Below are positions 42,408 to 63,631 of a stretch of DNA of 64,000 bases, piece by piece. Under the pieces are notes generated by a model. That model searched no databases, had not been told where the DNA came from, and worked only from the letters and a program-made list of their open reading frames with translations. Positions within the stretch are counted from its first letter, which is position 1. Each line of letters opens with the position of its first letter. Origin of the DNA: PVC group bacterium (GTDB lineage: Bacteria; Auribacterota; Erginobacteria; Erginobacterales; Erginobacteraceae); NCBI GenBank assembly GCA_040773245.1, contig JAXGWO010000011.1:9227-73226 (forward strand), in the 5' to 3' direction. A program made the translations under genes and the position numbers.

Positions 42408-42433
42408 ACCAAAAGGACAGGGGAAATTATATT

Positions 42434-43594: not shown

Positions 43595-44577
43595 GCGCCG
43601 CCCCCCGATCGGTCTCGGTGGTCGCCCCGGTCTTCAATGAGCGGGAGAACCTCCCCGAGTTCATCCGGCGGACGGAGGCTGTCCTCGATTCCCTGGACCG
43701 GCCGGCGGAACTGATCCTGGTCGATGACGGCAGCCGCGACGGCTCTCCCGGGATTATCGCCGAGGGCGCCCGGCGGAGGCCGGGATTGATCGTCGGGATC
43801 TTCTTCAACCGCAACTACGGGCAGCACATCGCGGTGATCGCCGGACTGGAAGAGAGCCGGGGCGGGACGGTGGTCACCATCGACGCCGACCTCCAGAACC
43901 CGCCGGAGGAGATCCCCCGCCTCCTCGCCGAGGCCGATAATGGCTTTGACGTGGTGGGGACCGTCCGGACCGGCCGGCAGGACACCATCTTCCGGCGGTT
44001 CTCCTCGCGGGTCATCAACCAGTTCACCGCGCGGGCGACCGGGGTGAGGATGCGGGACTACGGCTGTATGCTCCGGGCCTACCGGAGGCCGGTGGTGGAG
44101 GCCATCCTGGAATGCCGCGAGCGGAGTACCTTCATCCCGGTCCTGGCCAACACCTTCGCCGCCCGGGTGACCGAGATCGAGGTGGCCCACGCCGAGCGCC
44201 CGGCCGGCCGGTCGAAGTACGGGGTGATGAAGCTGGTCAACCTCCAGTTCGACCTCCTGACCAGTATGACCACCTTCCCCCTGCGGCTGCTCAGCATCGT
44301 CGGGCTGCTGGTCTCTCTCTTCGGATTGTTACTGGCCGTCCTGATCCTGGTCCTGAGGCTCATTATGGGTCCGGAGTGGGCGGCCGAAGGGATCTTCACC
44401 CTCTTCGCCCTGGTCTTCTTCTTTATGGGGGGGCAGTTCATCGCCCTCGGCCTGATCGGGGAATATATCGGCCGGATCTACACCGAGGCCCGGGCCCGGC
44501 CGCGCTACTTTGTCCGGGAGAGGGCGGGCCGCTCTTCCCTCCCCCGGCCGGGAGAAGAAACCACCGGAGAAGGATAA
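43591..44577 (+). CDS. arnC: undecaprenyl-phosphate 4-deoxy-4-formamido-L-arabinose transferase-like GT2
   Basis: '[14 protein letters not shown]...[12 protein letters not shown]' GT2 DxD motif. Two C-terminal TM helices. Overlaps the aminotransferase gene by 4 nt. Confidence 0.85.
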
Positions 44578-44578
44578 G

Positions 44579-46573: not shown

Positions 46574-46634
46574 CCTCCGGCCCGCTCTTAACCAGACCGA
46601 TCATTTCTCGATCGTGCTCGGTAATCGTTCTCTT

Positions 46635-46689
46635 GCCCGTACTCGTACTTGAAAATGCCTGACTTCGGGCCGAGTACGAGGACGAGTAC
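46635..46689. repeat. second copy of the GTACGA-hexamer hairpin element (REP-like)
   Basis: cccgtactcgtacttg ... ccgagtacgaggacgagtacg. Shares the exact 21-mer CGAGTACGAGGACGAGTACGA with 32857..32877. Lies between the arnA-like and arnD-like genes. Confidence 0.45.
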
Positions 46690-46714
46690 GAAGGAGATGA
46701 CGGGCAAGGAAAAG

Positions 46715-47635
46715 ATGAAGCGGCTGGGGCTGAGAATCGACGTCGATACCTACGACGGCGCCCGCAAGGGCGTCCCGGCCCTCCTCGATCTTCTCGCGGA
46801 ACACCGCGTCCGGGGCACCTTTTTCTGCTCGGTCGGGCCGGATAATATGGGCCGCCACCTGCTGCGGCTGTTTCGGCCCCGGTTCCTCGTCAAGATGCTC
46901 CGCTCCCGGGCCCCCGGGCTCTATGGCTGGCGGATCATCTTCCGGGGCACCCTCGGCCCCGGTCCCCGGATCTCCCGGGCCCTCGCCCCCTACCTGGGAC
47001 GGGCGGCCGGGGAGAAGCACGAGATCGGGCTCCACGGTCTCGACCACCATCGCTGGCAGACCCGGGGGGAGGGTTTCCGCGCCGGCCAGATCGTCGAAGA
47101 GATCAGAACGGGGAGCCGGATCATCGAGGACCTGGGCGGCAGCGTGGTCCGGTCTTTCGCCGCTCCCTCCTGGCGGGGGACCGGGGCTCTCCTCGAAGCC
47201 GAGCGGGAACTCGGATTGGCCTACGGGAGCGACTGCCGGGGGGAGTGTCTCTTCCGTCCCCTCCTCGCCGGCCGACCCTCCCCGGTTCCCCAGGTTCCGG
47301 TCACCCTGCCCACCTACGACGAGGTGATCGGCCGGGAAGGGGTCGGCGACGCCGGTTACAACCGCCATCTTTTCTCCCGCCTCCGTCCCGGCCGGCTCAA
47401 TGTCCTGGCCGTCCACGCCGAGGTCGAGGGGATGAGCAAACGGCCGCTCTTCGCGGAGTTCATCGCCGCCGCCCGGCGGGAGGGGTGGGAGTTGGTCCCC
47501 CTCGCCTCCCTTCTTCCCCCCGACCTATCAGCGCTCCCGGCCGGAAGAATGGAGCGGGGGTCGGTCCCCGGGCGGGAGGGTTGGGTGGCGGTCCAGGGAG
47601 AGAGCCAGGGAGGTGTTCCGCCGTGCGCTGGCTGA
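46715..47635 (+). CDS. arnD: ArnD-like 4-deoxy-4-formamido-L-arabinose-phosphoundecaprenol deformylase (polysaccharide deacetylase fold)
   Basis: 'MKRLGLRIDVDTYDGARKGVPALLDLL' parallels the E. coli ArnD N-terminus (GLRIDVDTFRGTREG). NodB-like His motifs 'GLHGLDHH'. Confidence 0.8.
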   Translation: MKRLGLRIDVDTYDGARKGVPALLDLLAEHRVRGTFFCSVGPDNMGRHLLRLFRPRFLVKMLRSRAPGLYGWRIIFRGTLGPGPRISRALAPYLGRAAGEKHEIGLHGLDHHRWQTRGEGFRAGQIVEEIRTGSRIIEDLGGSVVRSFAAPSWRGTGALLEAERELGLAYGSDCRGECLFRPLLAGRPSPVPQVPVTLPTYDEVIGREGVGDAGYNRHLFSRLRPGRLNVLAVHAEVEGMSKRPLFAEFIAAARREGWELVPLASLLPPDLSALPAGRMERGSVPGREGWVAVQGESQGGVPPCAG

Positions 47636-48122: not shown

Positions 48123-48512
48123 TCAGGCGCCCAATTCCTCGACTTTCTTCAGCAGGAGTCGGGGGTCGATCGGCTTTTCCAGGAACTCGGTGACCGGGAG
48201 GTAGATCTCGTCGATGTCCCGCCGGGAGAACTTGGAGGGGAAATCGCTCTCCCGGTTGACCGAGGTCAGCATCAGGATCGGGGTCCGGCCGATCTCCCCG
48301 TCGTGACGGATCTCCCGCGCCATCTTGAATCCGGCTTCCTGGTCGCCGGGGAACATCACGTCGAGGATGATCAAACCCGGGCGGAAGCGACGGATGTTTT
48401 CCAGCAGCCCGTCCCGGTCATTCTGGGACTCCACTTCGTGTCCGGCCGCCTTCAGGGTCATCTCCATAAAACCGACCATATCCACGTCGTCATCGACGAT
48501 ATAGACCTTCAT
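48123..48512 (-). CDS. single-domain response regulator (receiver only)
   Basis: 'MKVYIVDDDVDMVGFM...LIILDVMFPG...ILMLTSV' receiver motifs. Start overlaps the hydF stop (ATGA). Confidence 0.75.
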   Translation of the reverse strand: MKVYIVDDDVDMVGFMEMTLKAAGHEVESQNDRDGLLENIRRFRPGLIILDVMFPGDQEAGFKMAREIRHDGEIGRTPILMLTSVNRESDFPSKFSRRDIDEIYLPVTEFLEKPIDPRLLLKKVEELGA

Positions 48513-49771
48513 CCTTGATTCTCCTCGCGCTGTTTCCCGTTTAATCGGCCCGCCGGGCCGGAGATTAGCGGCTTCACTTCCGGGAACGGGGCCAGGGCCC
48601 GCCGGAAGATCCCTCCGCAGTAGGCCAGGGCGATCCCGTAATTGGTGATCGGGACCCCGGCCTGTTGGCACCGCATAATCCGGAAGAGCACCTCCTTCCG
48701 GTTAAACATACAGGATCCGCAGTGAATAACCAAGCGGTAATCACCGAGGTCGCCGGGGAAATCGTGGCCGGCGACCACCCGGGTCTCCACGGGGCGGCCG
48801 AGCCTGCCGGCGAGCAGACGGGGGATCTGGACCCGCCCGATGTCGTCGCCGACCGGGTGGTGGGTGCAGGCTTCGGCGATCAGGACCCGGTCCCCGGGCT
48901 GGAGGCGGTCGATGGCGAGCGCGCCTTCGGCGAAGGTCGCCAGGTCGCCCTTGAGCCGGGCGAAGAGGATCGAGAAGGAGGTCAAGGGGATCTCCGGCGG
49001 GGTGAGGCGGGCGACGGCCCCGAAGGCCTGGGAGTCGGTGACCACCAGAGCGGGCGGAGTCTTCAGGTCGGCCAGGGCCCGGGCCAGCCCGGTCTCCTTG
49101 ACCACCAGGCAGGCCGCGTCGTGGTCGAGGAGATCCCGGATGGTCTGGACCTGGGGCAGGATCAGCCTTCCCCGGGGGGCCTCGAGGTCGATCGGGACCA
49201 CCAGGACCGCCGTCTCCCCGGGGCGGATCAGATCCCCGGCGATCGGCCGGGCGGCGAGGAGATCCTCCGGCAGTTTCTCGAGCAGCCGCTGCTTGAAGAG
49301 ATCGATCCCCGCCCCCCGGCTGGCCTGGGCCTCCATCCAGGAGATCCCCGCGGCCTCCAGCCGGCCGGTCAATGTCCGGTCCGGGCGGGCTAGGTCGGAC
49401 TTGTTGAAGACCACGATCGCCGGGACCTTCTCGGCCGCAAATCGCTGGAGCAGATTCTCCTCGGATCCGCCCCATTGATCCGCCTCGGCGACGACCACCG
49501 CCAGGTCGGCCCGCTCGATCGTTTTCAGCGACCGGGCGATCCGCTGCCCCCCCAGCGCCCCCCGGTCGTCGATCCCGGCGGTGTCGATGAAGAGCACCGG
49601 CCCGATCGGGAGCAGCTCCATCGCCTTCTCCACCGGGTCGGTGGTGGTCCCCGGGGTCTCGGAGACGATCGAGATCGGCTGGCCGGTGAGGGCGTTGAGA
49701 AAGGACGACTTCCCGACATTGCGCCGCCCGAAGATCCCGATCTGGATTCTCATCCCCTTGGAGGTCTTCAT
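48509..49771 (-). CDS. hydF: [FeFe]-hydrogenase maturation GTPase
   Basis: 'IGIFGRRNVGKSS' G1 P-loop. 'DTAGID' G3. 'FNKSD' G4. C-terminal Cys cluster 'EACTHHP...IHCGSCMF' for FeS binding. Start taken as MKTSKG (track extends 8 codons further upstream). Confidence 0.8.
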   Translation of the reverse strand: MKTSKGMRIQIGIFGRRNVGKSSFLNALTGQPISIVSETPGTTTDPVEKAMELLPIGPVLFIDTAGIDDRGALGGQRIARSLKTIERADLAVVVAEADQWGGSEENLLQRFAAEKVPAIVVFNKSDLARPDRTLTGRLEAAGISWMEAQASRGAGIDLFKQRLLEKLPEDLLAARPIAGDLIRPGETAVLVVPIDLEAPRGRLILPQVQTIRDLLDHDAACLVVKETGLARALADLKTPPALVVTDSQAFGAVARLTPPEIPLTSFSILFARLKGDLATFAEGALAIDRLQPGDRVLIAEACTHHPVGDDIGRVQIPRLLAGRLGRPVETRVVAGHDFPGDLGDYRLVIHCGSCMFNRKEVLFRIMRCQQAGVPITNYGIALAYCGGIFRRALAPFPEVKPLISGPAGRLNGKQREENQG

Positions 49772-49778
49772 CTTATCC

Positions 49779-51185
49779 TCAGAAGTAAAGATCACGTTCT
49801 CCCCGTTGGGCGATCCGCTCCAGGCGGCGGCCGGTCTCCTCCCGGGTCGCCGGGTCCCCGATCCCGGCCAGCTCCCGTTCGATCAGCTTCCTCCCCGCCT
49901 CCCGGGTGGCCGGGGGGGCGTAGTCCTCCAGATACTCGGTCAGGGTGAGCAGCGCGTTGGGGGTGCAGAAGTTGCGGATGAAACCGGGGACGGCGAACTC
50001 CATAAACCTCTCCCCGGTCCTTCCCAGCCGGTAGCAGGCGGTGCAGAAACTGGGGACGAAGTCCCGGTCGATCAGGTCCCGGATGATCTCGTCCATCGGG
50101 CGGACGTCCCCGATCTCGAACTGCTCCCGCTTCAGTTCCTGGTCTCCCCGCCTGGTGTAGCCGGCCAGCTCGATCCGGGTGCCGGCGTCGATCTGGGAGA
50201 CCCCGAACTCCATCACCTCCCGCCGGATCCGCGGGGTCTCCCGGGCGGTCAGGATCATCCCGGTGTAGGGAACGGCCAGTCTCAGGACCGCGACCAGCTT
50301 CTTGAAGTCCCGGTCGGAGACCAGGCAGCGGTCGTCGAGCTTCACCCCGTGGGCCGGGCGGAGGCGGGGGAAGCTGATGGTGTGGGGGCCGCAGCCGAAA
50401 CGGTCGGCCAGAAACCGCGAGTGGGTGACCAGGCCGAGGACTTCGAACCGCCAGTCGTAGAGGCCGAAGAGGGCCCCGATCCCCACGTCGTCGCACCCCG
50501 CCTCCCAGGCCCGGGTCAGGCCGTCGAGCCGGTAGAGGTAGTCCCCCTTGCGGGTCCCCGGAGGATGGAACTTCCGGTAGGTCGGGTGGTGGTAGGTCTC
50601 CTGGAAGATCTGGTAGGTCCCGATCCCCGCCGCCTTGACCGTCCGGAAGCCGCCATAGTCGAGCGGGGCGGCGTTGACGTTCACGCGGCGGATCTCGCCC
50701 GGCCCCCGCCGGATCGAGTAGACTTTTCTCACCGTACGGGCGATAAACTCCGGGGAATAGTCCGGATGCTCCCCGAAGACCAGGATCAGCCGTTTGTGGC
50801 CGGCGTTCAGCAGCGCCTCCACCTGCCCCTCGATCTCGTCTTCGGTCAGGGTCTGGCGGACCGTGGTCCTCAGGCTCCGGCGGAAGGCGCAGTAGCCGCA
50901 GTCGTTTACGCAGTAGTTGCCGATATAGAGCGGGGCGAAGATCACGATCCGGTTGCCGTAAACTTCACGCTTGAGCTTCCGCGCGGCGGCGAAGATCTCC
51001 TCATTGAGGTCTTCCGAACCGGCGGCCAGGAGCGCCGCGGTCTCCCCGACCGTCAGGGGGACCTTCTCGAGGCTCTTGGCGATGACCTCCCGGACCCGGG
51101 CCGGGTCTTCCCCGGTTCCGGCCAGGATCTCTTCGATCCGTCCGTCGTCGATGAAATCGACCGCGTTCTTCGACAGTTCCTTCAT
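49779..51185 (-). CDS. hydG: [FeFe]-hydrogenase maturase, radical-SAM tyrosine lyase
   Basis: 'YIGNYCVNDCGYCAF' radical-SAM CX3CX2C motif. C-terminal 'SFCTACYR...C' auxiliary-cluster Cys motif. Start at MKELSKNAVDFID. The track's upstream 28 codons overlap the hybrid kinase gene and are rejected. Confidence 0.85.
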   Translation of the reverse strand: MKELSKNAVDFIDDGRIEEILAGTGEDPARVREVIAKSLEKVPLTVGETAALLAAGSEDLNEEIFAAARKLKREVYGNRIVIFAPLYIGNYCVNDCGYCAFRRSLRTTVRQTLTEDEIEGQVEALLNAGHKRLILVFGEHPDYSPEFIARTVRKVYSIRRGPGEIRRVNVNAAPLDYGGFRTVKAAGIGTYQIFQETYHHPTYRKFHPPGTRKGDYLYRLDGLTRAWEAGCDDVGIGALFGLYDWRFEVLGLVTHSRFLADRFGCGPHTISFPRLRPAHGVKLDDRCLVSDRDFKKLVAVLRLAVPYTGMILTARETPRIRREVMEFGVSQIDAGTRIELAGYTRRGDQELKREQFEIGDVRPMDEIIRDLIDRDFVPSFCTACYRLGRTGERFMEFAVPGFIRNFCTPNALLTLTEYLEDYAPPATREAGRKLIERELAGIGDPATREETGRRLERIAQRGERDLYF

Positions 51186-51189
51186 CGGA

Positions 51190-52317
51190 TCAATCCTTCC
51201 CGGCTGGCAGGCAAACGGTGAAGGTGGAACCCCGGTCGGGTTCGCTCTCCACCTCGATCCTTCCGTCATAGAGTTCCACCAGGCGCTTGAGGATCGAGAG
51301 CCCCAGACCGCTGCCCAGGACGTTTCGCGTCCGCTTGTCCTTGAGCCGGACGAACTCGCCGAAAAGCTTCTCTCTCCCCTCCGGGGAGATCCCGATCCCG
51401 GTGTCGCTGACCGAGATCGCCGTTTCCGGACCCTTCCGGGAGAGAACGATCTCCACCCGTCCGCCCTCGTGGTTGTACTTGACGGCGTTGCTGACCAGGT
51501 TGTTGAAGATCATCGCGATCTCTCCCCGGTCCGCGCGGACAACCAGGCTTTCCGGGCCGTCGATCCGGAGGGCGATCCGGCGGGAGCCGGCCTCCCAGGA
51601 CGCCAGCTCGGCCGCCTCCTTCGCCGCCCCGACCAGGTCGACCTCTTCCAGGGTCCGCTCCTTCTTTCCCGACTCCAGCCGGGTCATCTCCAGCAGGTCG
51701 GAGATCAGTTTCTTCATCTGCTCGAGCCGGAGCAGGGACCGGTTCACCACTTCCCCGTAAGGCCCGATATCCTCCCCCAGGGTCCGGTCGCGGAGGATGA
51801 AGAGGGCCCCGGCCACGGCGTTCAGGGGGGCCTTCAGCTCGTGGCCGAGAACCCGGATGAACTCGAACCGGACCTGCTTCTTCTCCGCTTCCAGGGCTTT
51901 CGCCCGCCGGGCGAGGAGGATCGCCCCGGCGGCCTTGCGGACGGCGTGCTTGAGGTCGTCCGGGGTGAACGGCTTGGTCAGGAAGTCGTAGGCTCCCTGC
52001 CGGGTGGCCGCGATCGCGGTCTCGATCGAGGCGTAGGCGGTGATCATCACCGTCAGCATCTCCGGGGAAGCGTTCGCGGTCCGCCGCAGGACGTCCAGGC
52101 CGGTGATGTCCGGAAGCTTGTAGTCGAGGAGGAGGATGTCCGGGGGTCCGGCGGCGATGGCGGTGACCGCCTCCTCCCCGGTGGCCGCGGTCTCCACCCG
52201 GAAGCCGATCTCCCCTTCGATATCGGGGAGACGGACGGAAAAGTTTTCCAGCGATCGCTCGATCCCGCCCAGCATCCCCGGCTCGTCGTCGACCGCCAGT
52301 ACTCTCAGCGTATTCAT
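51190..52317 (-). CDS. hybrid response-regulator / histidine kinase (REC-HisKA-HATPase_c)
   Basis: 'LRVLAVDDE...ILLLDYKLPDITG...VMITAY' receiver domain. H-box 'RVLGHELKAPLNAV'. 'MIFNNLVSNAVKY', 'SDTGIGI' and 'GLGLSI' ATPase boxes. Confidence 0.85.
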   Translation of the reverse strand: MNTLRVLAVDDEPGMLGGIERSLENFSVRLPDIEGEIGFRVETAATGEEAVTAIAAGPPDILLLDYKLPDITGLDVLRRTANASPEMLTVMITAYASIETAIAATRQGAYDFLTKPFTPDDLKHAVRKAAGAILLARRAKALEAEKKQVRFEFIRVLGHELKAPLNAVAGALFILRDRTLGEDIGPYGEVVNRSLLRLEQMKKLISDLLEMTRLESGKKERTLEEVDLVGAAKEAAELASWEAGSRRIALRIDGPESLVVRADRGEIAMIFNNLVSNAVKYNHEGGRVEIVLSRKGPETAISVSDTGIGISPEGREKLFGEFVRLKDKRTRNVLGSGLGLSILKRLVELYDGRIEVESEPDRGSTFTVCLPAGKD

Positions 52318-52463: not shown

Positions 52464-52862
52464 CTATTCCCCAAGGAGCTTCTCCAGCTCGGCCACGATC
52501 TGCTCGGGCCGGACCGGCTTGTCGAGGAGCAGATCGGCCTTGATCCAGCTCCGCTCCTCCCGGGTGACGGCGGCGAACTCGATCCCGGTCTCCCCGGCCA
52601 CCCCGGTGACGATGATCACCGGCAGGCCGGGGTAAAGCTTCTTCGCCCGGTAGCAGAGGACGAATCCGCCGTCATCCTCTTCCAGCATCAGGTCGGCGAC
52701 CAGGGCGTCCGGCCGCTGGCGGGCCAACCGCTCTTCCGCTTCCTTCCTGGTTCCGGCCTTGAGCACCCGGTACCCGGCTGAGCGGAGGATCAGCTCCAGC
52801 TGGAGGAGGAAATCCGGGTCGTCGTCCACGATCAGGATGGTCTTAGCTTCGTTCCCGGTCAT
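52464..52862 (-). CDS. single-domain response regulator (receiver only)
   Basis: 'KTILIVDDDPDFLL...ALVADLMLE...VIIVTGV' receiver motifs. 132 aa. Start overlaps the stop of the hydrogenase-like kinase (ATGA). It is the C-terminal part of track ORF 52464..54791, whose upstream 640 codons are an off-frame artefact. Confidence 0.8.
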   Translation of the reverse strand: MTGNEAKTILIVDDDPDFLLQLELILRSAGYRVLKAGTRKEAEERLARQRPDALVADLMLEEDDGGFVLCYRAKKLYPGLPVIIVTGVAGETGIEFAAVTREERSWIKADLLLDKPVRPEQIVAELEKLLGE

Positions 52863-54907
52863 AGCGGTTGTTCTCCGGGGTCGTGCCGCGGCAGGTCGAT
52901 GGTGAACTTCGTCCCGGTCGGCCCGGCGGCGGGGTCGGCGTTCGACTCCACGGCGATCTCCCCCCGGTGCATCTTGATGATCCCGTAGGTCACCGCCAAC
53001 CCCAGGCCGGTGCCCTTGCCGATCTGCTTGGTGGTGAAGAAGGGTTCGAAAATCTTGGAGAGGTTCTCCGCCGGTATCCCCACCCCGGTGTCGCTGACGG
53101 CGATAATGACGGACCGGGGCTGGTCGGCGATGGCGATGGCGATCCTGCCCCCGTCCGGCATCGCGGCGAAGGAGTTGGTGAGCAGGTTGGTGAGGACCTG
53201 GAGGAGCTGCTCCCGGTCCACCTCCGCCACCGGGTTCTCCATCCGGTCCTGAACCTCGATGGCGACGTTCTCCGGCTTGACCACCATCCGGCAGCCTCTG
53301 GCCACCAGGTCCCGGATGTCGACCGGTTCGCGCAGAACCTTGTTCTGCCGGGAGAAATGGAGGAGCCCGTTGACGATCTTCTTGCAGCGGTCGGCCTGCT
53401 CGACGATCGTCCGGGCGTCGTTCTTCAGCCGGCTCTCCTCCTGGAGGTCTTCGAGCATCAGGTGGGCGTACATCAGAACCACCCCCAGCGGGTTGTTGAC
53501 CTCGTGGGCGATCCCGGCGGCCAGCTGTCCCATACTGGCCAGCCACTCCGACTGCATCAGCGCCTCCTGGGTGGCGGCCAGCTCCCGGTTCGACCGGGCC
53601 AGCTCCCCCACCGTCAGGTTGAGCCGGTCGATGGTGTAGGGGAGGCACATCTCGCTCTCGGCCAGGTCCTTGAGAATGGCGACGGCGTGCTCGCGGCAGG
53701 ACGGATAGCCGCAGGCGCCGCAGTTCAGTTCGTCTTCCGGCTTGAACTTGCCCATCCTCTGGAGGATGGCGGTAATATCCTCGCCGGCCGGCTGCCTCAG
53801 CCGCTGGTCGAGGTCGGCGTAGGAGCGGGAGAGGTCGAGGCCGCGGAAGGTCTCCCGGGGGTCCTCTCCGGCCGAACTCCCGGTCTCTCCGGCCCGTTGC
53901 CGGGCGTAGTCGCTGATCCGGCTCCTCCGCCGGAAGAGGGGATCGGCGGTGGACATCCCCGCCCCCATAATGCAGCCGTCGCAGGCCAGGATCTCCAGCA
54001 GCCGGGTCCGCATCCCCCCGGTCCTGAACTCCTCGATGGCGGAGGTGAACCTCCGGCCGCTGGCGGTGACCACGTCGCTGGTCAGGAGGTCCTCCTTGAG
54101 GTCGGCGGCTTGAAGCAGGCCCCCGTGGAGGGGGAAGAGCGTCCCCAGGCCGCCCCGGGGCGGGTCGAAGTCGGAGGGGGCGGCCGCTTCCGGATCCAGA
54201 CCCGATTCGGCGAACATCCGCCGCAGCTCGACGAAGGTAAGCACCTCGTCGATCTCGCCTTCGATCAGGCGGTCGCGGGACTCGATCTTCTTGGCGGTGC
54301 AGGGCCCGATGAAGACCACCCGGATCTCCTCCCCCGCCCGCTCCCGGAGGGCCCGGGCGGCGGCCGCCATCGGGGAGACAATCGGGGCCAGGCGGCCGAT
54401 CAACTCGGGGTGGTATTTCTCCACGTAAAAGACCACCGCCGGGCAGGAGGTCGCGATGTACGGGCCGCCGCCTTCGTCCAGGAGCCGGTGGTAGCGGTCG
54501 GCCACCAGGTCGGCGCCGAAGGCCACCTCGTTGACCCGGGCGAAACCCAGGCCGCGGATCATCCCGACCAGGATTCGGTAATCGAATTCCGGGAAGTCCG
54601 CCGGGAAGCTGGGGGCGACGATCGCCGTCACCGGGCGGGGGCCGCTCAGGAGGCCGCGGACCGCGGCGGTGGAGTCGGTGATCACCTTCGCCCCCTGGGA
54701 GCAGACCCTCACGCAGTTTCCGCAGCCGATGCAGCGATCGTGGAGGACCGTGGCCTGGCCCTCGATGATCCGGATCGCCTTGGCCGGGCACTCCCGGACG
54801 CAGGTGTAGCAGACCCGGCAGCGGTCGGGGGCGGTCCGGACGGCCTTGAAAATGGTGTAGTCCTTGGCCGCCGGGGATGGACTTTTGGTTGTCGCGGATC
54901 CGGTCAA
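52859..54907 (-). CDS. hydS: sensory [FeFe]-hydrogenase-like domain fused to a histidine kinase (group-C-type putative H2 sensor; ferredoxin + H-domain + HisKA + HATPase_c)
   Basis: Two 4Fe-4S ferredoxin motifs ('[12 protein letters not shown]', '[11 protein letters not shown]'). H-cluster-type motifs L1-like '[18 protein letters not shown]', L2 '[10 protein letters not shown]' and L3 '[14 protein letters not shown]'. Extra Cys cluster 'CGACGYPSC'. H-box '[15 protein letters not shown]'. 'LLTNSFAAM', 'SDTGVGI' and 'GTGLGLAV' ATPase boxes. Confidence 0.85.
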
Positions 54908-56628
54908 GTCACCACCTCGCGGCGCCGATAGGCGGTGTGGAGCAGTTGGTGGCTCTTCTCCCCCAGGGGGGCGCCGAGGAATTCCCGGTAGAGGCGCCGG
55001 ATCGATCGGTTGCGGTGGGAGACCCGGACCGCCTCCGTCCGGTCGAGCCGGTAGAGGGACTTCATTCTCTCCCGGAGGGCTTCGGGATCGGAGCTGATCG
55101 GCTGGCCGCCGCCGTTGATACAGCCGCCCGGGCAGGTCATCACCTCGATGAAGTGCGGCCTTCTCAGGCCGGCCCGGATGTCATCGAGGATCCGCCTGGC
55201 GTTGCCCACGCCGTTGGCCACCGCTACCCGCAGCCGGAGATCCCCGATCGGGATTTCGGCTTCCCGGATCCCCTCCTCCCCCCGCAGGGCTTCGATCCGC
55301 GGGTTCTCCATATCCCGTCCGGTGAGGAGGAAGTGGGCGTTGCGGACGGCGGCCTCCATCACCCCGCCGCTGGCCCCGAAGAGCTTGCCCGCCGTGGTCC
55401 GCTCGCCGAAGGGGGTGTCGGCGGTATCCGGCTCGATCCGGTCGAGGTCGATCCCCCGCATCCGGATCGCCCGGGCCAGTTCCCGGGTGGTGAGGACGGC
55501 GTCGATATCCGGCAGACCACCCCGGGACATCTCCGGCCGGCCGGCCTCGAACTTCTTGGCCGTGCAGGGCATAATCGCCACGGAGAAGATCTTCTCTGGG
55601 CCGATCCCCTCCCTTCCGGCGAAGTGGGTCTTGATCACCGCACCCATCATCTGCTGGGGGCTCTTGCAGGTGGAGAGGTTGGGGATGAACTCCGGGTAGA
55701 ACTCCTCCACGAACTTGACCCAGCCCGGCGAGCAGCTGGTCATCATCGGCAGCACCCCGTTGTTTTTCAGCCGGTCGACCAGCTCGGCGCTCTCCTCCAT
55801 TATCGTCAGGTCGGCGGAGAAGGCGGTGTCGAAGACCCGGTCGAAGCCGAGCCGGCGCAGGGCGGCGGTCAGGGCCCCGGCGATGTCCTTCCCCGGCCCG
55901 ACCCCGAACTCCTCGCCCAGGGTGACCGAGATCGAGGGGGCGTGCTGGACGACCACGAACTTCTCCGGGTCGGCCAGGGCTTCGGTCACCGACTTGATCG
56001 AGCTCTGCTCCCGCAGCGCCCCGGTGGGGCAGACCCGGATGCACTGCCCGCAGTAGACGCAGCTGCTGATGTTGATCCCTTCCCCGAAGGCGGTCGAGAT
56101 CCGGGTCTTGCTGCCCCGCCCGGTGAAGTCGATCGCCGCCACCCCCTGGACCTCCGCGCAGACCCTCACGCACTTCCCGCAGAGGACGCACTTGGCCGGG
56201 TCGCGCTCGATCGCCGGGCTGGAGATATCGAGATGTTCCACCGTCTTGGCCCCACCATAGCGGCGCTCCCGGACCCCCAGCTCCTCTGCCAGTTCCTGGA
56301 GCCGGCAGTCTCCGGACCGGACGCAGTAGAGGCAGTCGTCGGGGTGGTCGGCCAGGAGCAGCTCGACGATGGTCTTGCGGGCCCGGACCGCCCGGGGGGA
56401 GTGGGTCAGGACCTTCATCCCCCCGGCCGCCGGTGTGGCGCAGCTCGGAGCCAGCCCCGAATGGCCTTCGATCTCCACCACGCAGAGACGGCAGGCCCCG
56501 GTCGGGGTCATCCCCTCGATGTGGCAGAGAGTGGGGATCTTCCACCCGGCCCGCCGGATCACCCCCAGGAGCATCTCGCCCTTCTCGGCCTCGGTCGGCC
56601 GGCCGTTGATCTCGACCGTGATCTTCAT
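54904..56628 (-). CDS. hydA: [FeFe]-hydrogenase catalytic subunit (N-terminal 2Fe-2S and 4Fe-4S ferredoxin-like domains + H-domain)
   Basis: Start at MKITVEINGRPTE overlaps the hydB stop (ATGA). The track's upstream 148 codons are rejected. 2Fe-2S 'CHIEGMTPTGACRLC'. Two CxxCxxCxxxCP motifs. H-cluster L2 'IMPCTAKKFE' and L3 'EVMTCPGGCINGGGQP'. The L1 motif reads 'TSCSPGW' instead of the canonical TSCCPxW. Confidence 0.85.
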   Translation of the reverse strand: MKITVEINGRPTEAEKGEMLLGVIRRAGWKIPTLCHIEGMTPTGACRLCVVEIEGHSGLAPSCATPAAGGMKVLTHSPRAVRARKTIVELLLADHPDDCLYCVRSGDCRLQELAEELGVRERRYGGAKTVEHLDISSPAIERDPAKCVLCGKCVRVCAEVQGVAAIDFTGRGSKTRISTAFGEGINISSCVYCGQCIRVCPTGALREQSSIKSVTEALADPEKFVVVQHAPSISVTLGEEFGVGPGKDIAGALTAALRRLGFDRVFDTAFSADLTIMEESAELVDRLKNNGVLPMMTSCSPGWVKFVEEFYPEFIPNLSTCKSPQQMMGAVIKTHFAGREGIGPEKIFSVAIMPCTAKKFEAGRPEMSRGGLPDIDAVLTTRELARAIRMRGIDLDRIEPDTADTPFGERTTAGKLFGASGGVMEAAVRNAHFLLTGRDMENPRIEALRGEEGIREAEIPIGDLRLRVAVANGVGNARRILDDIRAGLRRPHFIEVMTCPGGCINGGGQPISSDPEALRERMKSLYRLDRTEAVRVSHRNRSIRRLYREFLGAPLGEKSHQLLHTAYRRREVVT

Positions 56629-58613
56629 TCCCGGATCACCGCCTGGAACTTGCAGACTTCGTAACAGGCCCCGCAGCCGGTGCACTTCTCCTGGAGGATG
56701 TAGTGCATCCGCTTGGCCGTCCCCTTGATCGCCCCCGCCGGGCAGTTCCGGGCGCAGATGGTGCAGCCGACGCACTTCTCGGGATCGATCCGGAAGGTCA
56801 TCAGTTCCCGGCAGGCCCCGGCCGGGCAGCGGCGCTCGTAGACGTGGGCCTCGTACTCGTCCCGGAAGAAACGCAGTGTGCTTAAGACCGGGTTGGGCGC
56901 GGACTGTCCCAGGCCGCAGAGGCTGGTGTCCTTGATCGTCCCCGCCAGCCGCTCCAGGTACATCACGCTCTTGAACCTCTCCAGGGCCCCGGTTCCCGCC
57001 GTCTTCCGGCGGCTGGTGATGGATTGCAGGGTTTCCAGCATCCTCCGGGTTCCCTCCCGGCAGGGGATGCACTTGCCGCAGGACTCGCGCTGGATGAAGT
57101 CCATAAAGAACTTGGCCACGTCGACCATACAGGTATCCTCGTCCATCACCACCAGTCCCCCCGAACCCATCATCGCTCCCACGGTCTTGAGCGACTCGTA
57201 GTCGATGTCGATATCCAGATGCCCCTCGGGGATGCAGCCGCCCGACGGTCCCCCGATCTGGACCGCCTTGTACTTCTTCCCCCCGGCGATCCCGCCGCCG
57301 ATCTCGAAGATGATCTTTCTCAGCGGGGTGCCCATCGCCACCTCAACCAGCCCGGTCCGGGCGATCTTGCCCGAGAGGGCGAAGACCTTGGTCCCCGGGC
57401 TTCCGGCGGTGCCGAACTGGGCGAACTCTCCCGGGCCCCGGGAGAGGATCTCCGGGAGGTTGGCCAGGGTCTCCACGTTGTTGATCACGGTCGGCCGGCC
57501 GAAGAGGCCGGAGACGGCGGGGTAGGGGGGGCGGGGCCGGGGCATTCCGCGCTTCCCCTCGATACTGTGGATCAGGGCGGTCTCCTCGCCGCAGACGAAG
57601 GCCCCGGCCCCCATCTTGATTTTGATCTCCAGCTTCATCCCGCTGTCGAGGATGTTGTAGCCGAGCAGCCCGTACTCGCGGGCCTGTTCGATCGCGGCCT
57701 TCAGCCGCTCGATCGCCAGGGGATACTCCGCCCGGATGTAGACGTAGGCCCGGGCGGCCCCGATCGCGTAGGCGGCGATGGCGATCCCCTCCAGCAGGCG
57801 GTGGGGGTCGCCCTCGATCACCGCCCGGTCCATAAAGGCCCCCGGGTCGCCCTCGTCGGCGTTGCAGATCAGGTACTTCTGGTCGGCGGTCGCCTCCAGG
57901 GCCACCCGCCACTTCTTCCCGGTCGGGAAGCCGCCGCCGCCCCGTCCCCGCAGCCCGCTCTCCTCCACCGCCCGGCAGAGTTCCTCCCGGGTGAGGTTGC
58001 GGACGGTGGCGGCGAAAGCGCGCCAGCCGCCGCGGGCGATGTACTCGTCGATCGACCCCGGGTCGATCACCCCGCAGTTGGCCAGGACCAGGCGGGTCTG
58101 GTCCCGGAAGAAGGGGTGTTCGTCGAGATAGGGGAGGTCCGGCCAGGCCTCGCGCCCCTCCTGGCGGTACTGACCGAGAACCAGGCCGGTCGGGATCTGG
58201 CCGTCGATCGCTCCCACCACCCGTTCCGCCTCCGCCCCGCTCACCCGGGCGAAGGAGAGCCGGTGCTTCCCCGGCATCTGGAGGTCGACAATCGGCTCCT
58301 CCGAGCAGAGCCCCACGCACCCGACCTCCACCACTTCGGCGTCGATCTTTCTCCGGGAAATCTCTTTCCGCAGATTTAGCAAGGTCTGGTCGGCTCCGGC
58401 CGCCCGGCCGCAGGTGCCGGCGCCGACGAAGAAGACCGGGCGGGTCATTTTTTCCCGCTTCAGGGCGGCGATGCGAACCCGGATCATCTCGGCGCAGTCC
58501 CGGCGGTCGTGGCAGAGCGGTCCCGAGGTGACGCAGGCCACCCGGTCCGGGCAGGGGGTCTCGCGGCTGTGCCGGCACTTCTCGCAGCATTTTTCCGTCA
58601 GCTTCAGGTTCAC
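56625..58613 (-). CDS. hydB: NADH-binding flavoprotein subunit of multimeric [FeFe]-hydrogenase (NuoF-like, with N-terminal and C-terminal FeS domains)
   Basis: 'GRGGGGFPTGKKW' FMN/NADH-site motif of NuoF/HoxF. N-terminal Cys-rich domain. C-terminal 2x 4Fe-4S 'CVGCTICARNCP' and 'CTGCGACYEVC'. Confidence 0.85.
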   Translation of the reverse strand: MNLKLTEKCCEKCRHSRETPCPDRVACVTSGPLCHDRRDCAEMIRVRIAALKREKMTRPVFFVGAGTCGRAAGADQTLLNLRKEISRRKIDAEVVEVGCVGLCSEEPIVDLQMPGKHRLSFARVSGAEAERVVGAIDGQIPTGLVLGQYRQEGREAWPDLPYLDEHPFFRDQTRLVLANCGVIDPGSIDEYIARGGWRAFAATVRNLTREELCRAVEESGLRGRGGGGFPTGKKWRVALEATADQKYLICNADEGDPGAFMDRAVIEGDPHRLLEGIAIAAYAIGAARAYVYIRAEYPLAIERLKAAIEQAREYGLLGYNILDSGMKLEIKIKMGAGAFVCGEETALIHSIEGKRGMPRPRPPYPAVSGLFGRPTVINNVETLANLPEILSRGPGEFAQFGTAGSPGTKVFALSGKIARTGLVEVAMGTPLRKIIFEIGGGIAGGKKYKAVQIGGPSGGCIPEGHLDIDIDYESLKTVGAMMGSGGLVVMDEDTCMVDVAKFFMDFIQRESCGKCIPCREGTRRMLETLQSITSRRKTAGTGALERFKSVMYLERLAGTIKDTSLCGLGQSAPNPVLSTLRFFRDEYEAHVYERRCPAGACRELMTFRIDPEKCVGCTICARNCPAGAIKGTAKRMHYILQEKCTGCGACYEVCKFQAVIRE

Positions 58614-59107
58614 TCCTCTTCTTCCTGCGAATGGTAACGCTTTAAAATGGCGGGGATGTCGTCGCCGGAGAGGTTGGCGTGGAACTGGCCGTTGACCGAG
58701 AGCACCGGGGCCAGTCCGCAGGCTCCGATGCAGGCCACCACCTCGAGGCTGAAGAGGCCGTCCCGGGTGGTCTGGCCCGGTTTGACCTTCAGCTCCCGCT
58801 CCAGCCGTTCCAGCACCGCCGCCGACCCCTTGACGTGACAGGCGGTCCCCCGACAGACCTGGATGTGGTACTTCCCCCGGGGCTGGAACCGGAACTGGTT
58901 GTAGAAGGTGGCCACCCCGTAGATCTTGCTGGCCGGAAGGTTGAGGCGCCGGCCGACCAGCAGGACCGCCTCCCGGGAGAGGTAACCCTCTTCCTCCTGG
59001 ACCCGCTGGAGGAGCGGGATCAGGGCCTCTCTCCCTGACTCCGGGTATTGGCGGATCAGGGATTCGACCGCCGCCGCCTTCTCGGGTAATCTGTTCATAT
59101 TTCCCAA
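58610..59107 (-). CDS. hydC: NuoE-like thioredoxin-fold 2Fe-2S subunit of multimeric [FeFe]-hydrogenase
   Basis: 'CRGTACHVKG...CIGACGLAP' is the four-Cys 2Fe-2S motif of NuoE/HoxE. 165 aa. Confidence 0.85.
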   Translation of the reverse strand: MGNMNRLPEKAAAVESLIRQYPESGREALIPLLQRVQEEEGYLSREAVLLVGRRLNLPASKIYGVATFYNQFRFQPRGKYHIQVCRGTACHVKGSAAVLERLERELKVKPGQTTRDGLFSLEVVACIGACGLAPVLSVNGQFHANLSGDDIPAILKRYHSQEEEE

Positions 59108-59111
59108 CCGT

Positions 59112-59768
59112 CTACTCCGGGCGGTGGCGCCGGGCCAGGCAGGCGATCTTATCCAAGGCGATCGCCATATCCATATTCTCCACGACCACCTCTTCCGGGA
59201 GCCGGAGTGTCTCCGGAGCGAAGTTCAAAATTCCCCGCACCCCGGCGGCCGCCAGTTCCCCGGCGACTTCCTGGGCGGCGGCGGCGGGGACGGTGAGGAT
59301 CGCCACCCGGATCCTTTCGCTCTCGATCACCCGCCGGAGTTCCCCCGCGGGATAAGACCGGCAGCCGTGGATCACCCTCCCGGTCTTGGCGGGGTCGGAG
59401 TCGAAGGAGGCCACGATCTTCAGCTTGGGATGATGGGAGGCGAAGAAGGGGAGGAGCGCCCGCCCCAGGTTGCCCAGGCCGACCAGGGCGACCGGCTCCC
59501 CGGCGGGGTTGTCGAGGACGTCTCCGATGAAACCGACCAGTTCCTCGATGTCGTACCCCCTCTTGGTGTTGCCGGAACAGCCGATCTCCATCAGGTCGCG
59601 GCGGACCTGGGCCGCCGTCACCCCGGCCGCGGCCGCCAGGCCGTGGGAATAGACTTTCCCCCGCCCTTCCCCGGCCAGCTTGCCCAGCAGCCGGCGGTAG
59701 ACGCTCAATCTCTCGATCGTTCTCCCGGTAATATTTTTCACCTCAGCCGCTCTTCCTTGTCTGTTCAA
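59112..59768 (-). CDS. rex: redox-sensing transcriptional repressor Rex
   Basis: 'ERLSVYRRLL' winged-helix region. 'ALVGLGNLGRAL' Rossmann NADH site. 'AILTVPAAAAQEV'. 'ILNFAP'. Track start is TTG 59768. GTG 59741 with AAGGAAGAG upstream is an alternative start. Confidence 0.85.
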   Translation of the reverse strand: MNRQGRAAEVKNITGRTIERLSVYRRLLGKLAGEGRGKVYSHGLAAAAGVTAAQVRRDLMEIGCSGNTKRGYDIEELVGFIGDVLDNPAGEPVALVGLGNLGRALLPFFASHHPKLKIVASFDSDPAKTGRVIHGCRSYPAGELRRVIESERIRVAILTVPAAAAQEVAGELAAAGVRGILNFAPETLRLPEEVVVENMDMAIALDKIACLARRHRPE

Positions 59769-59947: not shown

Positions 59948-60286
59948 ATGACCTTGTCAGGTAAGCGGAATCGGGACGACGTCCAGCCCCTCTTCACGAT
60001 CGGTGTGGTGGCCGAGATGATCGGGGTCACGCCGGCCACGCTGAGGCTGTGGGAGAAGAAGGGGTTGGTCTCCCCCTCCCGGCGGGGGAAGAACCGCTGC
60101 TATTCCTACCGTGATCTGGAACGGCTCCGGGAGATCAAACGCCTGCTCGGGGAGAAGAGGATGAACATCGCCGGGGTCCGGGCCGTTCTGGGCCGTGAGC
60201 GTTGCTGGGACCTGAAGGGGTGCGGCCCTCGCCGGGAGACCTGCCCGGTCTACCGGCAGGAAGAGGGGGTGCGGGGACGAGAATGA
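59948..60286 (+). CDS. MerR-family transcriptional regulator with Cys-rich C-terminal tail
   Basis: 'FTIGVVAEMIGVTPATLRLWEKKGL' MerR HTH. C-terminal 'CWDLKGCGPRRETCPVY' (three Cys). Track start is GTG 59927. The first ATG is at 59948. Confidence 0.7.
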   Translation: MTLSGKRNRDDVQPLFTIGVVAEMIGVTPATLRLWEKKGLVSPSRRGKNRCYSYRDLERLREIKRLLGEKRMNIAGVRAVLGRERCWDLKGCGPRRETCPVYRQEEGVRGRE

Positions 60287-61494
60287 CGAAGACGATCGCC
60301 GAGATCAACGCGAAGATCCGGTCGGGGAAGGCGGTGGTGGTCACCGCCGAGGAATTGATCGGCCGGGTGGAGGAGACCGGGGTCCGCCGGGCCGCCCGGG
60401 AAGTCGACGTGGTCACCACCGGGACGATGGGACCGATGTGCTCCTCCGGAGCTTACTTCAACCTCGGACAGGGGAAGCCGAAGATGAAGTTGGGCGGGGG
60501 TCGGGCCACTCTCAACGACGTCCCCGTCTACACCGGGCTGGCGGCCGGGGACTTCTTTCTCGGGGCGGGAGCGCTCCCGGATACCGATCCCCGGAATATG
60601 ATCTACCCGGGCCGGTTTCTTTACGGGGGCGGCCACGTGATCGAGGACCTGGTCGCGGGGAAGGAACTCCCCTTCATCGCCCACGGCTACGGCACCGACT
60701 GCTACCCCCGGAAGGAGCTGGCGGTCCGGGTCAGCCTGAAGGACTTCAACCAGGCGGTCCTCTTCAACCCCCGGAACATCTACCAGAACTACAACGCGGC
60801 GGCCAACCTCTCCGACCGGGTGATCTACACCTATATGGGGGTTCTGAAGCCGGGTTTGGGGAACGTGAACTACTGCAGCGCCGGCCAGCTCTCCCCCCTG
60901 CTCAAGGATCCCTTCTTCCGGACCATCGGGATCGGGACCCGGGTCTTTCTCGGCGGCGGGGTCGGATACGTGGCCTGGTGGGGTACCCAGCACAACACCG
61001 CGGCGGAGACCGACGAGCGCGGGGTCCCGGCCGCGCCGGCGGGGACGGCCGCCCTGATCGGGGATCTGAAGGGGATGTCGCCGGAGTGGCTCAAGGGGGC
61101 CAGCTTCACCGGTTACGGGGCGACCCTGGCGGTGGGGGTGGGGGTGCCGATCCCGGTCCTGGACGAGGAGGTCTGCCGCTACGCCGCATTGCGGGACCGG
61201 GATCTCAGGACCCGGGTGGTCGATTACAGCCGGGACTACCCATTGGGACGCTCCACCGTGCTCGCCCGGGTCACCTACGAGGAGCTCAAGAGCGGGTCGA
61301 TCCGGATCCGGAAGAAGGAGGTGCCGACCGCCTCCCTCTCCAGCTACCCCCGGGCCCGGGAGATCGCCGGGATATTGAAGGAATGGATCGCCGGAGGGAA
61401 GTTCCTCCTCACCGAACGGGTGGCCGAGTTCCCCGGACCCGGCTCCGGGTACGCCTACCGGCCGTTGAAGGAACGGCCGATAAGTGGGCAGTAG
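60283..61494 (+). CDS. COG1900/DUF39-family protein (homolog of methanogen homocysteine-biosynthesis L-aspartate-semialdehyde sulfurtransferase)
   Basis: ~400 aa with conserved Cys in 'TGTMGPMCSSGA'. Immediately followed by a NIL-domain ferredoxin, which is the conserved two-gene arrangement. Start ATG 60283 overlaps the MerR-family stop (ATGA). Confidence 0.7.
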   Translation: MTKTIAEINAKIRSGKAVVVTAEELIGRVEETGVRRAAREVDVVTTGTMGPMCSSGAYFNLGQGKPKMKLGGGRATLNDVPVYTGLAAGDFFLGAGALPDTDPRNMIYPGRFLYGGGHVIEDLVAGKELPFIAHGYGTDCYPRKELAVRVSLKDFNQAVLFNPRNIYQNYNAAANLSDRVIYTYMGVLKPGLGNVNYCSAGQLSPLLKDPFFRTIGIGTRVFLGGGVGYVAWWGTQHNTAAETDERGVPAAPAGTAALIGDLKGMSPEWLKGASFTGYGATLAVGVGVPIPVLDEEVCRYAALRDRDLRTRVVDYSRDYPLGRSTVLARVTYEELKSGSIRIRKKEVPTASLSSYPRAREIAGILKEWIAGGKFLLTERVAEFPGPGSGYAYRPLKERPISGQ

Positions 61495-61846: not shown

Positions 61847-62254
61847 ATGGTTTCGAAACGGATAGTTCTTCACTTCCCCAAGGACCTGGTCGGGGAACCG
61901 ATTATGAGCCGGCTGGTCCTCAAGTACGGGCTGGAGTGCAACATACTCAAGGCCTCGATCCTCCCCCGCCAGGTAGGGATTATGGTCCTTGGACTCAAGG
62001 GCCGGAACAAGGACTACCACGAGGCGATCGAGTACCTGAAGAGCCTCCAGGTCACCGTCCAGCCGCTCAGCCAGGACGTGACCCGCAACCCCGCCCGCTG
62101 CAACCACTGCGGGGCCTGCGTCACCATCTGTCCCACCTCCGCCCTGACCCGGGACCCGGAGACGGGGGAGATCAGGTTCGACAAGAACGCCTGCATCGGT
62201 TGCGAGCTCTGCATCCCCGCCTGCCCGATGCAGGCGATGGAAGTGCATTTTTAA
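61847..62254 (+). CDS. NIL-domain 2x[4Fe-4S] ferredoxin (partner of the COG1900 protein)
   Basis: N-terminal NIL domain (~75 aa). 'CNHCGACVTICP' and 'CIGCELCIPACP' ferredoxin motifs. Confidence 0.8.
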   Translation: MVSKRIVLHFPKDLVGEPIMSRLVLKYGLECNILKASILPRQVGIMVLGLKGRNKDYHEAIEYLKSLQVTVQPLSQDVTRNPARCNHCGACVTICPTSALTRDPETGEIRFDKNACIGCELCIPACPMQAMEVHF

Positions 62255-62428: not shown

Positions 62429-63631
62429 TTGGATATCAGTGGAGAAATGAGAAAGATCTATCTCGACCATAACGCCACCACGCCGCTGCGGGAGGAAGTC
62501 CTGGCGGCGATGACCGATGTTTACCGGAACGTCTCCGGCAATCCTTCCAGCATCCACTTCCTGGGGCGGGAGGCGAGGAAGAGGCTGGAGGCCGGTCGGA
62601 AGCAAGTGGCGGAGGCCGTCGGGGCGAAGCCGGAGGAGATTGTCTTCACCGGGGGCGGGACGGAGGCCGACAACCTGGCCGTCCAGGGGGTGGCTTACTC
62701 CTACCGCTCCAAGGGCAGCCATATAATCACCTCTTCGATCGAGCACCCCGCGGTCCTCTCGGCCTGCCGCTTCCTGGAGAAGGAGGGTTTCTCCGTCACC
62801 TATCTCCCGGTCAGCCGGGATGGCTTGGTCGAACTGGAGGAACTGGAGAAGGCGATCCGTCCGGAGACGATCCTGATCTCGGTGATGACCGCCAACAACG
62901 AGACCGGGACCATCCAGCCGGTGGCCGGGATCGGGGAGATCGCCCGCGCCCGGAAGATCGTCTTCCACACCGACGCCATCCAGGGGCTGGGCAAGATCCC
63001 CATCTCGGCCGGTGAGATCAGGGCCGACCTGGTCTCCCTCTCCGCCCACAAGATCTACGGGCCCCAGGGGGTCGGGGCCCTCTACATCCGCAAGGGAACC
63101 CGGGTCCGCCCGCTGACTTACGGCGGCCACCACGAGAGGGGCAAGCGGCCGGGGACCGAGAACCTGGCCGGGATCGTCGGCTTCGGCGAGGCCTGCCGGC
63201 TGGCCCTCGAGGATCTGGAGAGCGAGGCCGACCGGCTCCGCCTCCTCCGGGACCGGCTCTGCTCCGATATCTCGGAGAGAATTTCCCGGGTGAAACTGAA
63301 CGGCGCCCCCGGACTGCGCCTGCCCAACACCCTGAACCTGAGCTTCGAATTCGTCGAGGGAGAGGGGATCCTCCTCGGCCTGGAAGAACAGGGGATCGCC
63401 GCCGCCACCGGCTCCGCCTGCACTTCGGGCGAACTCGCACCCTCCCACGTGCTCTCTGCGATGGGGGTGGAGGCGGCCCTGGCCCAGGGATCGATCCGTT
63501 TCTCCCTCGGCCGGGAGAACACCCTGGAAGATATCCTCCATACCGTTGAAGTCCTGGTTCCGGTGGTCCGGAGACTGCGGGAGATGTCACCCTTCTCCGA
63601 GCCGGATACCGATAAGCAAGGAGATAATTAA
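62429..63631 (+). CDS. nifS: cysteine desulfurase (NifS/IscS, class I aminotransferase-V)
   Basis: 'SAHKIYGPQGVGALY' PLP-lysine motif. 'SGSACTSG' active-site Cys loop. 400 aa. Confidence 0.9.
   Translation: MDISGEMRKIYLDHNATTPLREEVLAAMTDVYRNVSGNPSSIHFLGREARKRLEAGRKQVAEAVGAKPEEIVFTGGGTEADNLAVQGVAYSYRSKGSHIITSSIEHPAVLSACRFLEKEGFSVTYLPVSRDGLVELEELEKAIRPETILISVMTANNETGTIQPVAGIGEIARARKIVFHTDAIQGLGKIPISAGEIRADLVSLSAHKIYGPQGVGALYIRKGTRVRPLTYGGHHERGKRPGTENLAGIVGFGEACRLALEDLESEADRLRLLRDRLCSDISERISRVKLNGAPGLRLPNTLNLSFEFVEGEGILLGLEEQGIAAATGSACTSGELAPSHVLSAMGVEAALAQGSIRFSLGRENTLEDILHTVEVLVPVVRRLREMSPFSEPDTDKQGDN

Follow-up and report, generated by a model that had tools for sequence, protein, structure and literature searches.

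The window analysed here, by which we mean the whole stretch of 64,000 nucleotides from a PVC group bacterium, carries on its minus strand a trimeric [FeFe]-hydrogenase operon in the order hydC-hydB-hydA. The stop and start codons of the successive genes overlap (the hydB stop and the hydA start form ATGA), and hydG and hydF are found a few kb from hydA. The genes are located as follows (positions of the window).

58610..59107, minus strand: hydC, NuoE-like thioredoxin-like [2Fe-2S] subunit (PF01257, 8e-52; NCBIfam nuoE_fam)
56625..58613, minus strand: hydB, NuoF-like FMN/NAD(H) subunit (PF01512, PF10589 and Fer4; NCBIfam nuoF_fam and NF040902)
54904..56628, minus strand: hydA, catalytic [FeFe]-hydrogenase subunit of 574 aa (ATG at 56628, beginning MKITVEING; stop at 54904)
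49779..51269, minus strand: hydG, radical-SAM H-cluster maturase (TIGR03955, 485.2 bits, cut-off 312.2)
48509..49795, minus strand: hydF, H-cluster maturation GTPase (TIGR03918, 533.8 bits, cut-off 325.6)

In addition, a HydS-type sensory hydrogenase paralogue with a fused histidine kinase lies directly downstream of hydA.

HydA displays the full M3 architecture in Pfam (PF13510, Fer2_4; PF10588, NADH-G_4Fe-4S_3; two Fer4; PF02906, Fe_hyd_lg_C; and PF02256, Fe_hyd_SSU), that is, an N-terminal [2Fe-2S] domain followed by a NuoG-type [4Fe-4S] domain, a 2x[4Fe-4S] ferredoxin domain, the H-domain and a C-terminal small-subunit-like tail. The H-domain was recognised by PF02906 (3e-92, 309 bits, cut-off 22) and by TIGR02512 (497 bits, cut-off 406), while the protein as a whole scored 797.5 bits over profile positions 1-571 of the NCBIfam model NF040763 (‘NADH-dependent [FeFe] hydrogenase, group A6’), whose curated cut-off is 765. 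As for HydB, a CCxxC prefix domain stands at its N-terminus and a 2x[4Fe-4S] domain (Fer4, residues 608-658) at its C-terminus, with GGPSG at residue 454, and the combination of GGPSG with the C-terminal 2x[4Fe-4S] domain was described as the signature of the bifurcating type (Losey et al. 2020, PMC7311640). The HydABC of the window (HydDB group A3, NCBIfam ‘group A6’) most probably works as a (con)furcating hydrogenase coupled to NAD(H) and ferredoxin. Note that almost all close homologues of HydA are 571-576 aa long, and this near equality of lengths, together with the ATGA overlap with hydB, indicates that the hydA start is sound and that the residue numbering used below is right.

The active site of HydA was then described through the three motifs of the H-domain, of which the first (L1) departs from the textbook sequence.

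55720..55740, minus strand: L1 motif T297-S298-C299-S300-P301-G302-W303 (ACC AGC TGC TCG CCG GGC TGG)
55732..55734, minus strand: codon TGC of Cys299, the conserved proton-relay cysteine, as aligned to CpI
55729..55731, minus strand: codon TCG of Ser300, at the position of the CpI cubane ligand Cys300, as aligned to CpI
55546..55572, minus strand: L2 motif MPCTAKKFE, intact, with the ligand Cys355 and Lys358
55099..55146, minus strand: L3 motif EVMTCPGGCINGGGQP, intact, with the ligand Cys499 and the bridging Cys503

The earlier note had read TSCSPGW at 55720-55740 with the numbering T297 to W303, and both the reverse complement of the window and the coding sequence give the same result. HydA was compared by phmmer with all PDB chains, and the references retained were HydA of T. 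kivui (8a6t, E 7e-189), HydA1 of A. woodii (7q4v, E 2e-169) and CpI (4xdc/9rj9, E ~1e-134). Matches of E ~1e-189 to solved structures already settle the fold of HydA. The alignment is free of gaps over residues 206-511 in the case of CpI, and over residues ~206-409 when all three references are considered, and it places C299 and S300 of HydA opposite C299 and C300 of CpI, where the motif is TSCCPGW. Since the alignment runs without gaps across the motif, the CpI numbering is directly applicable to HydA. The claims that a serine stands where [4Fe-4S]H has its cysteine ligand (CpI C300, C170 in the CrHydA1 precursor), that the relay cysteine is kept and that L2 and L3 are intact all stand, and the indel that could have shifted another cysteine to the ligand position was found in none of the alignments with CpI, T. 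kivui and A. woodii.

Residue 300 is the sole difference from CpI among the active-site residues that were checked. Indeed, the other 17 residues of the H-cluster, the CN pocket and the proton path are all identical, i.e., the cubane ligands C355, C499 and C503, the proton path C299, E279, S319, E282 and R286, and the [2Fe] pocket A230, P231, S232, P324, Q325, M353, K358, F417 and M497. In terms of motif patterns, HydA carries L2 (MPCxxK) and L3 (ExMxCxxGCxxG), and of the two cysteines of TSCCPxW it has only the first.

This departure is the rule among the relatives of HydA. In the best 120 homologues drawn from a collection of 5.8 billion proteins (67-100% identity), L1 reads TSCSP[G/A]W in 117, SSCSPGW in 2 and TSCCQAW in a single protein (P0009, 78% identical). 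Likewise, a search of GTDB species-representative genomes gave [T/S]SCSPGW in 79 of its best 80 loci, which belong to Planctomycetota, Hydrogenedentota, Marinimicrobia/Neomarinimicrobiota, Elusimicrobia, Acidobacteriota, Calditrichota, Fermentibacteria, Kiritimatiellota, WOR-3, Aminicenantes and others, the nearest of them (62-71% identical HydA) coming mostly from Hydrogenedentota and Planctomycetota. The codons used for Ser300 across the 79 loci were TCG (52), TCT (11), TCA (6), TCC (6), AGC (3) and AGT (1), and the use of all six serine codons is what purifying selection acting on the residue itself over a long time would leave behind.

For a wider sample, 1.84 billion cluster representatives at 50% identity were searched exhaustively with HMMER, and 148 of the best 150 matches covered L1. 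Among these 148 representatives, the pair C299-C300 was found in 92 and C299-S300 in 27 (18%), and 31 (21%) carry a serine at position 300 whatever the preceding residue. This proportion of 18-21% independently reproduces the ~20% of [FeFe]-hydrogenase sequences with Ser at this position given by Kertess et al. (2017, PMC5855289, citing Winkler 2013). Concerning the family models, five Ser-type representatives scored 810-881 bits on NF040763 and five Cys-type representatives 666-769 bits; the A6 model is therefore centred on the Ser type without being exclusive to it. In a neighbour-joining tree of 132 H-domains, the Ser-type sequences were scattered among the Cys-type ones, and Fitch parsimony counted 20 state changes at position 300 when all residue types are taken together; as the tree is star-like and carries no support values, it is not taken here as a count of how often Ser300 arose. 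The suggestion of the earlier note that this ‘catalytic’ subunit might itself be atypical is not supported by these distributions, since TSCSPGW is the consensus of the surrounding subfamily, and its proposal that close relatives should be searched for the motif received a positive answer.

The same data bear on the accuracy of the assembly. That the codons TGC TCG arose from an error of sequencing or assembly was an a priori possibility, raised as such in the earlier note, and nothing else speaks for it. Six recorded contigs encode exactly this HydA protein, and the four Logan assemblies that were retrieved, which derive from different SRA runs assembled independently, all contain the 21-mer and the 574-aa protein without any difference. 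An assembly error is thereby excluded as far as this can be done without reads. In addition, the same residue recurs in the homologues and genomes counted above (117/120 and 79/80, respectively), and the TCG codon is two substitutions away from TGC or TGT, so that the earlier argument against a single-base error holds; relatives, however, also use TCC and TCT for Ser300, and a single substitution separates these two codons from TGC and TGT, respectively. We thus regard an artefact as having a negligible probability.

Several characterised enzymes allow the meaning of Ser300 to be discussed. The closest parallel is HydA1 of the A. woodii HydABCD complex (PDB 7Q4V/7Q4W/8A5E), in which Ser301 was described as a ligand of the H-cluster cubane in an active enzyme with normal infrared (FTIR) signatures (Katsyv et al. 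2023, PMC10021017). This protein shares with the HydA of the window the TSCSPGW motif, the M3 architecture, the HydB and HydC partners and Cys321, the match (E 2e-169) extending over the full length with an identity of ~50% over the H-domain; however, it belongs to another phylum and differs at roughly half of its residues. The complex also has an extra HydD subunit, for which a non-exhaustive look at the window identified no counterpart, whereas the HydS-type fused histidine kinase is a feature of the operon of the window. The cryo-EM maps of the A. woodii complex are of moderate resolution. The best overall solved relative is T. kivui HydA (~54% identity over the H-domain), with the same architecture and partners but with a canonical TSCCPSW and an all-Cys cubane. 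Architecture and partners as in the window are also found in the bifurcating HydABC of Thermotoga maritima (HydA, 7P5H). In contrast, CpI from Clostridium pasteurianum (4XDC, 3C8Y; group A1) shares the H-domain numbering, but has C300 instead of S300 and is a monomeric, ferredoxin-dependent enzyme without HydB and HydC.

TSCSPGW was also reported ‘rather than TSCCPAW’ in motif 1 of the trimeric hydrogenases of Melainabacteria ACD20 (Di Rienzi et al. 2013, PMC3787301), although these two proteins also lose a cysteine in motif 3, whereas L3 of the HydA of the window is intact. The same exchange at the same position was engineered in CrHydA1 by Kertess et al. (2017, PMC5855289), who mutated each cubane ligand of this enzyme; C115 in their expressed-protein numbering corresponds, with an offset of 55, to C170 of the precursor and thus to CpI C300. 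The C115S, C115A and C115D variants were pale, their [4Fe-4S] site was poorly occupied, [2Fe] was not inserted and the activity stayed below 1 umol H2 per min per mg, and the contrast between the inactive C115S and the active natural Ser-type enzymes was already flagged by these authors. A search of the literature for more recent studies of Ser-ligated H-clusters gave none apart from the papers cited here.

Altogether, we consider it likely that HydA is an ordinary, catalytically competent HydABC subunit of a natural subclass that uses Ser as the first cubane ligand, as suggested by the gap-free alignment of Ser300, the conservation of the other catalytic residues, the family-wide retention of the serine and the operon context. 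In such an enzyme, the O-gamma of Ser300, probably as serinate, would bind one Fe of [4Fe-4S]H in place of the thiolate of Cys300, with Cys355, Cys499 and the bridging Cys503 as the other three cubane ligands, while Cys299 would stay the proton relay to the azadithiolate bridge via the conserved E279/S319/E282/R286 path, and H2 turnover would proceed as in canonical enzymes. A Ser-ligated cubane was the first of the two alternatives put forward in the earlier note, and it is also the reading adopted for A. woodii HydA1, with the same motif, from its cryo-EM structure. By analogy with this enzyme, we infer that a direct Fe-O(Ser) ligation, and with it a tuning of the cluster potential such as the redox shift expected in the earlier note, may occur in the HydA of the window.

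It might be argued instead that Ser300 stays off the iron, and that Cys299 or a water/hydroxide molecule ligates the cubane, the proton delivery to the adt amine being ensured otherwise, e.g., by Ser300 or water. Such a shift was suggested by Kertess et al. for C115A, the engineered serine fails to hold the cluster in CrHydA1 (PMC5855289), and the limited resolution of the A. woodii structure leaves some room for it. However, the A. woodii HydABC has full activity and a canonical FTIR pattern, and Ser301 was modelled as the ligand (PMC10021017). In the HydA of the window, Cys299 and the four residues E279, S319, E282 and R286 are all retained. Loss of the relay cysteine strongly lowers the activity in CpI and CrHydA1, and Cys299 is kept in 27 of the 31 Ser300 representatives among the best 150 matches, as would be expected if its relay role was conserved. 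For these reasons, we hold a shift of ligands to be unlikely.

A swap of ligands was also considered, in which Cys321 (within STCKSPQ) would replace Cys300 as the fourth thiolate. This cysteine is present in the HydA of the window, in A. woodii and in all 119 Ser-type close homologues, and the Cys300-type CpI and T. kivui enzymes have Ala at this position. Nevertheless, 57 Cys300-type aligned stretches also carry Cys321, while 5 of the 27 Ser300-type stretches have Ala or Thr instead; furthermore, residues 319-325 presumably face the [2Fe] and the proton path within the pocket and not the cubane, which counts against the swap. Cys321 was thus rejected as a compensating cysteine, being uncoupled from Ser300 in the broad sample and equally common with Cys300, and the swap itself appears highly implausible.

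Finally, HydA could be a degenerate, non-catalytic enzyme, i.e., a sensory or pseudo-hydrogenase, considering that L1 departs from the textbook motif and that a genuinely sensory HydS-like paralogue adjoins hydA. Yet this paralogue follows a different pattern, with S299/C300, a shortened L3 and the fused histidine kinase, whereas HydA conserves all other checked active-site residues and the full M3 architecture, is translationally coupled to hydB and hydC with hydG and hydF nearby, and has the same motif as the A. woodii enzyme, whose activity was established by experiment. A loss of catalysis is therefore scarcely credible in our view. The textbook TSCCPxW is rather too strict and HydA still falls inside the family, since ~18-21% of the representatives deviate likewise and the A. 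woodii enzyme is active.

Returning to the catalytically competent, Ser-ligated HydA, serine is no simple substitute for the cysteine ligand and must depend on some compensating context, given that C115S deprives CrHydA1 of both cluster and activity. The comparison of 17 Ser-type with 86 Cys-type H-domains over 300 columns revealed no residue that significantly co-varies with Ser300. The best signals came from position 296, where Phe is depleted among Ser-type sequences (p = 1e-4), and from changes at positions 496 and 498 beside Cys499 (p = 2-5e-4); all of them fail correction for ~6000 tests and should be taken as leads only.

The Ser300 variant has already been described and is very common, and the HydA of the window is an ordinary member of its subfamily: hydA is one more representative of a large and phylogenetically widespread group in which Ser is the rule. 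Annotation rules that require TSCCPxW would wrongly flag a fifth of the genuine catalytic [FeFe]-hydrogenases. The underlying puzzle, namely that natural Ser-type enzymes assemble and work while CrHydA1 C115S does not, is a published one, and the question of whether the serine tunes the cluster was likewise already posed in the literature. One speculative answer, to which we give a rather low probability, is that Ser300 could be a selected tuning device, instead of a neutral alternative, that shifts the midpoint potential or the proton coupling of [4Fe-4S]H to suit the NAD(H)/ferredoxin bifurcating module, and that works only in a context that CrHydA1 does not have (e.g., non-Phe296 or altered 496/498). 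If such tuning is true, exchanging Ser300 and Cys300 between HydABC enzymes (S300C, C300S) would alter the catalytic bias or the efficiency of bifurcation.

The catalytic hydrogenase gene hydA is adjoined on its downstream side by a gene for a HydS-like kinase, with a TTGA start/stop overlap between them, and this gene order was also present in an independent contig (L001). The genes surrounding hydA are given below.

Features around the hydrogenase locus
40686..47635 (+): ArnT/PMT-like glycosyltransferase, DegT aminotransferase, GT2 glycosyltransferase, ArnA-like formyltransferase-epimerase fusion and polysaccharide deacetylase
48123..48518, 51190..52317 and 52464..52859 (all -): two stand-alone response-regulator receiver proteins and one receiver-HisKA-HATPase hybrid kinase
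48509..51269 (-): hydF and hydG, adjoining the hydrogenase genes
52859..54907 (-): 682-aa fusion of a HydS-like sensory [FeFe]-hydrogenase domain with HisKA/HATPase_c
59112..59768 (-): Rex, redox-sensing repressor (NF003995, 194 bits)
60202..61494 (+): homocysteine-biosynthesis sulfur-incorporation enzyme (PF01837), downstream
61847..62254 (+): NIL-domain 2x[4Fe-4S] ferredoxin, downstream
62429..63631 (+): class-V aminotransferase / cysteine-desulfurase-like gene, downstream

The HydS-like protein combines Fer4, Fe_hyd_lg_C (3e-42) and PF04060 (‘putative Fe-S cluster’) domains with a histidine kinase, and fits HydDB group C1, the histidine-kinase-linked class. Its L1 motif (ATSCPAV) carries Ser at position 299 and Cys at position 300, the mirror image of HydA, and L3 is present in a shortened form ([10 protein letters not shown]).

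Among HydA relatives, a rare L1 variant, [T/S]SCCQAW, brings Cys back at position 300 but replaces Pro301 by Gln and Gly302 by Ala. It was found in a close relative (P0009, 78% identical to HydA, in a cluster of 18 sequences) and recurs in a distant representative (P0223); by a hand estimate at the protein level for P0009, reaching it from HydA's own codons would take at least four base substitutions. The best-scoring representative of the 50%-identity clusters, P0121, is a protein of 4122 aa with seven tandem H-domains, six of which display TSCCASW and the remaining one TSCCAGW. Concatenation or misassembly of the gene call could account for it, or it could be a truly repetitive eukaryote-like protein.

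As for the other genes, no hydE was identified in the scanned part of the window (40.6-64 kb). The PF01837 enzyme, NIL-domain ferredoxin and class-V aminotransferase genes look like a sulfur-assimilation cluster, and the genes of 40686..47635 resemble an Arn-type cluster (4-amino-4-deoxy-L-arabinose lipid A modification).

Both receiver proteins and the hybrid kinase are interspersed among hydF, hydG and the HydS-like kinase gene, and this interleaving suggests that an H2-sensing phosphorelay controls the hydrogenase locus. In addition, the Rex gene lies directly upstream of hydC, a position that fits regulation of the hydCBA operon by NADH/NAD+.
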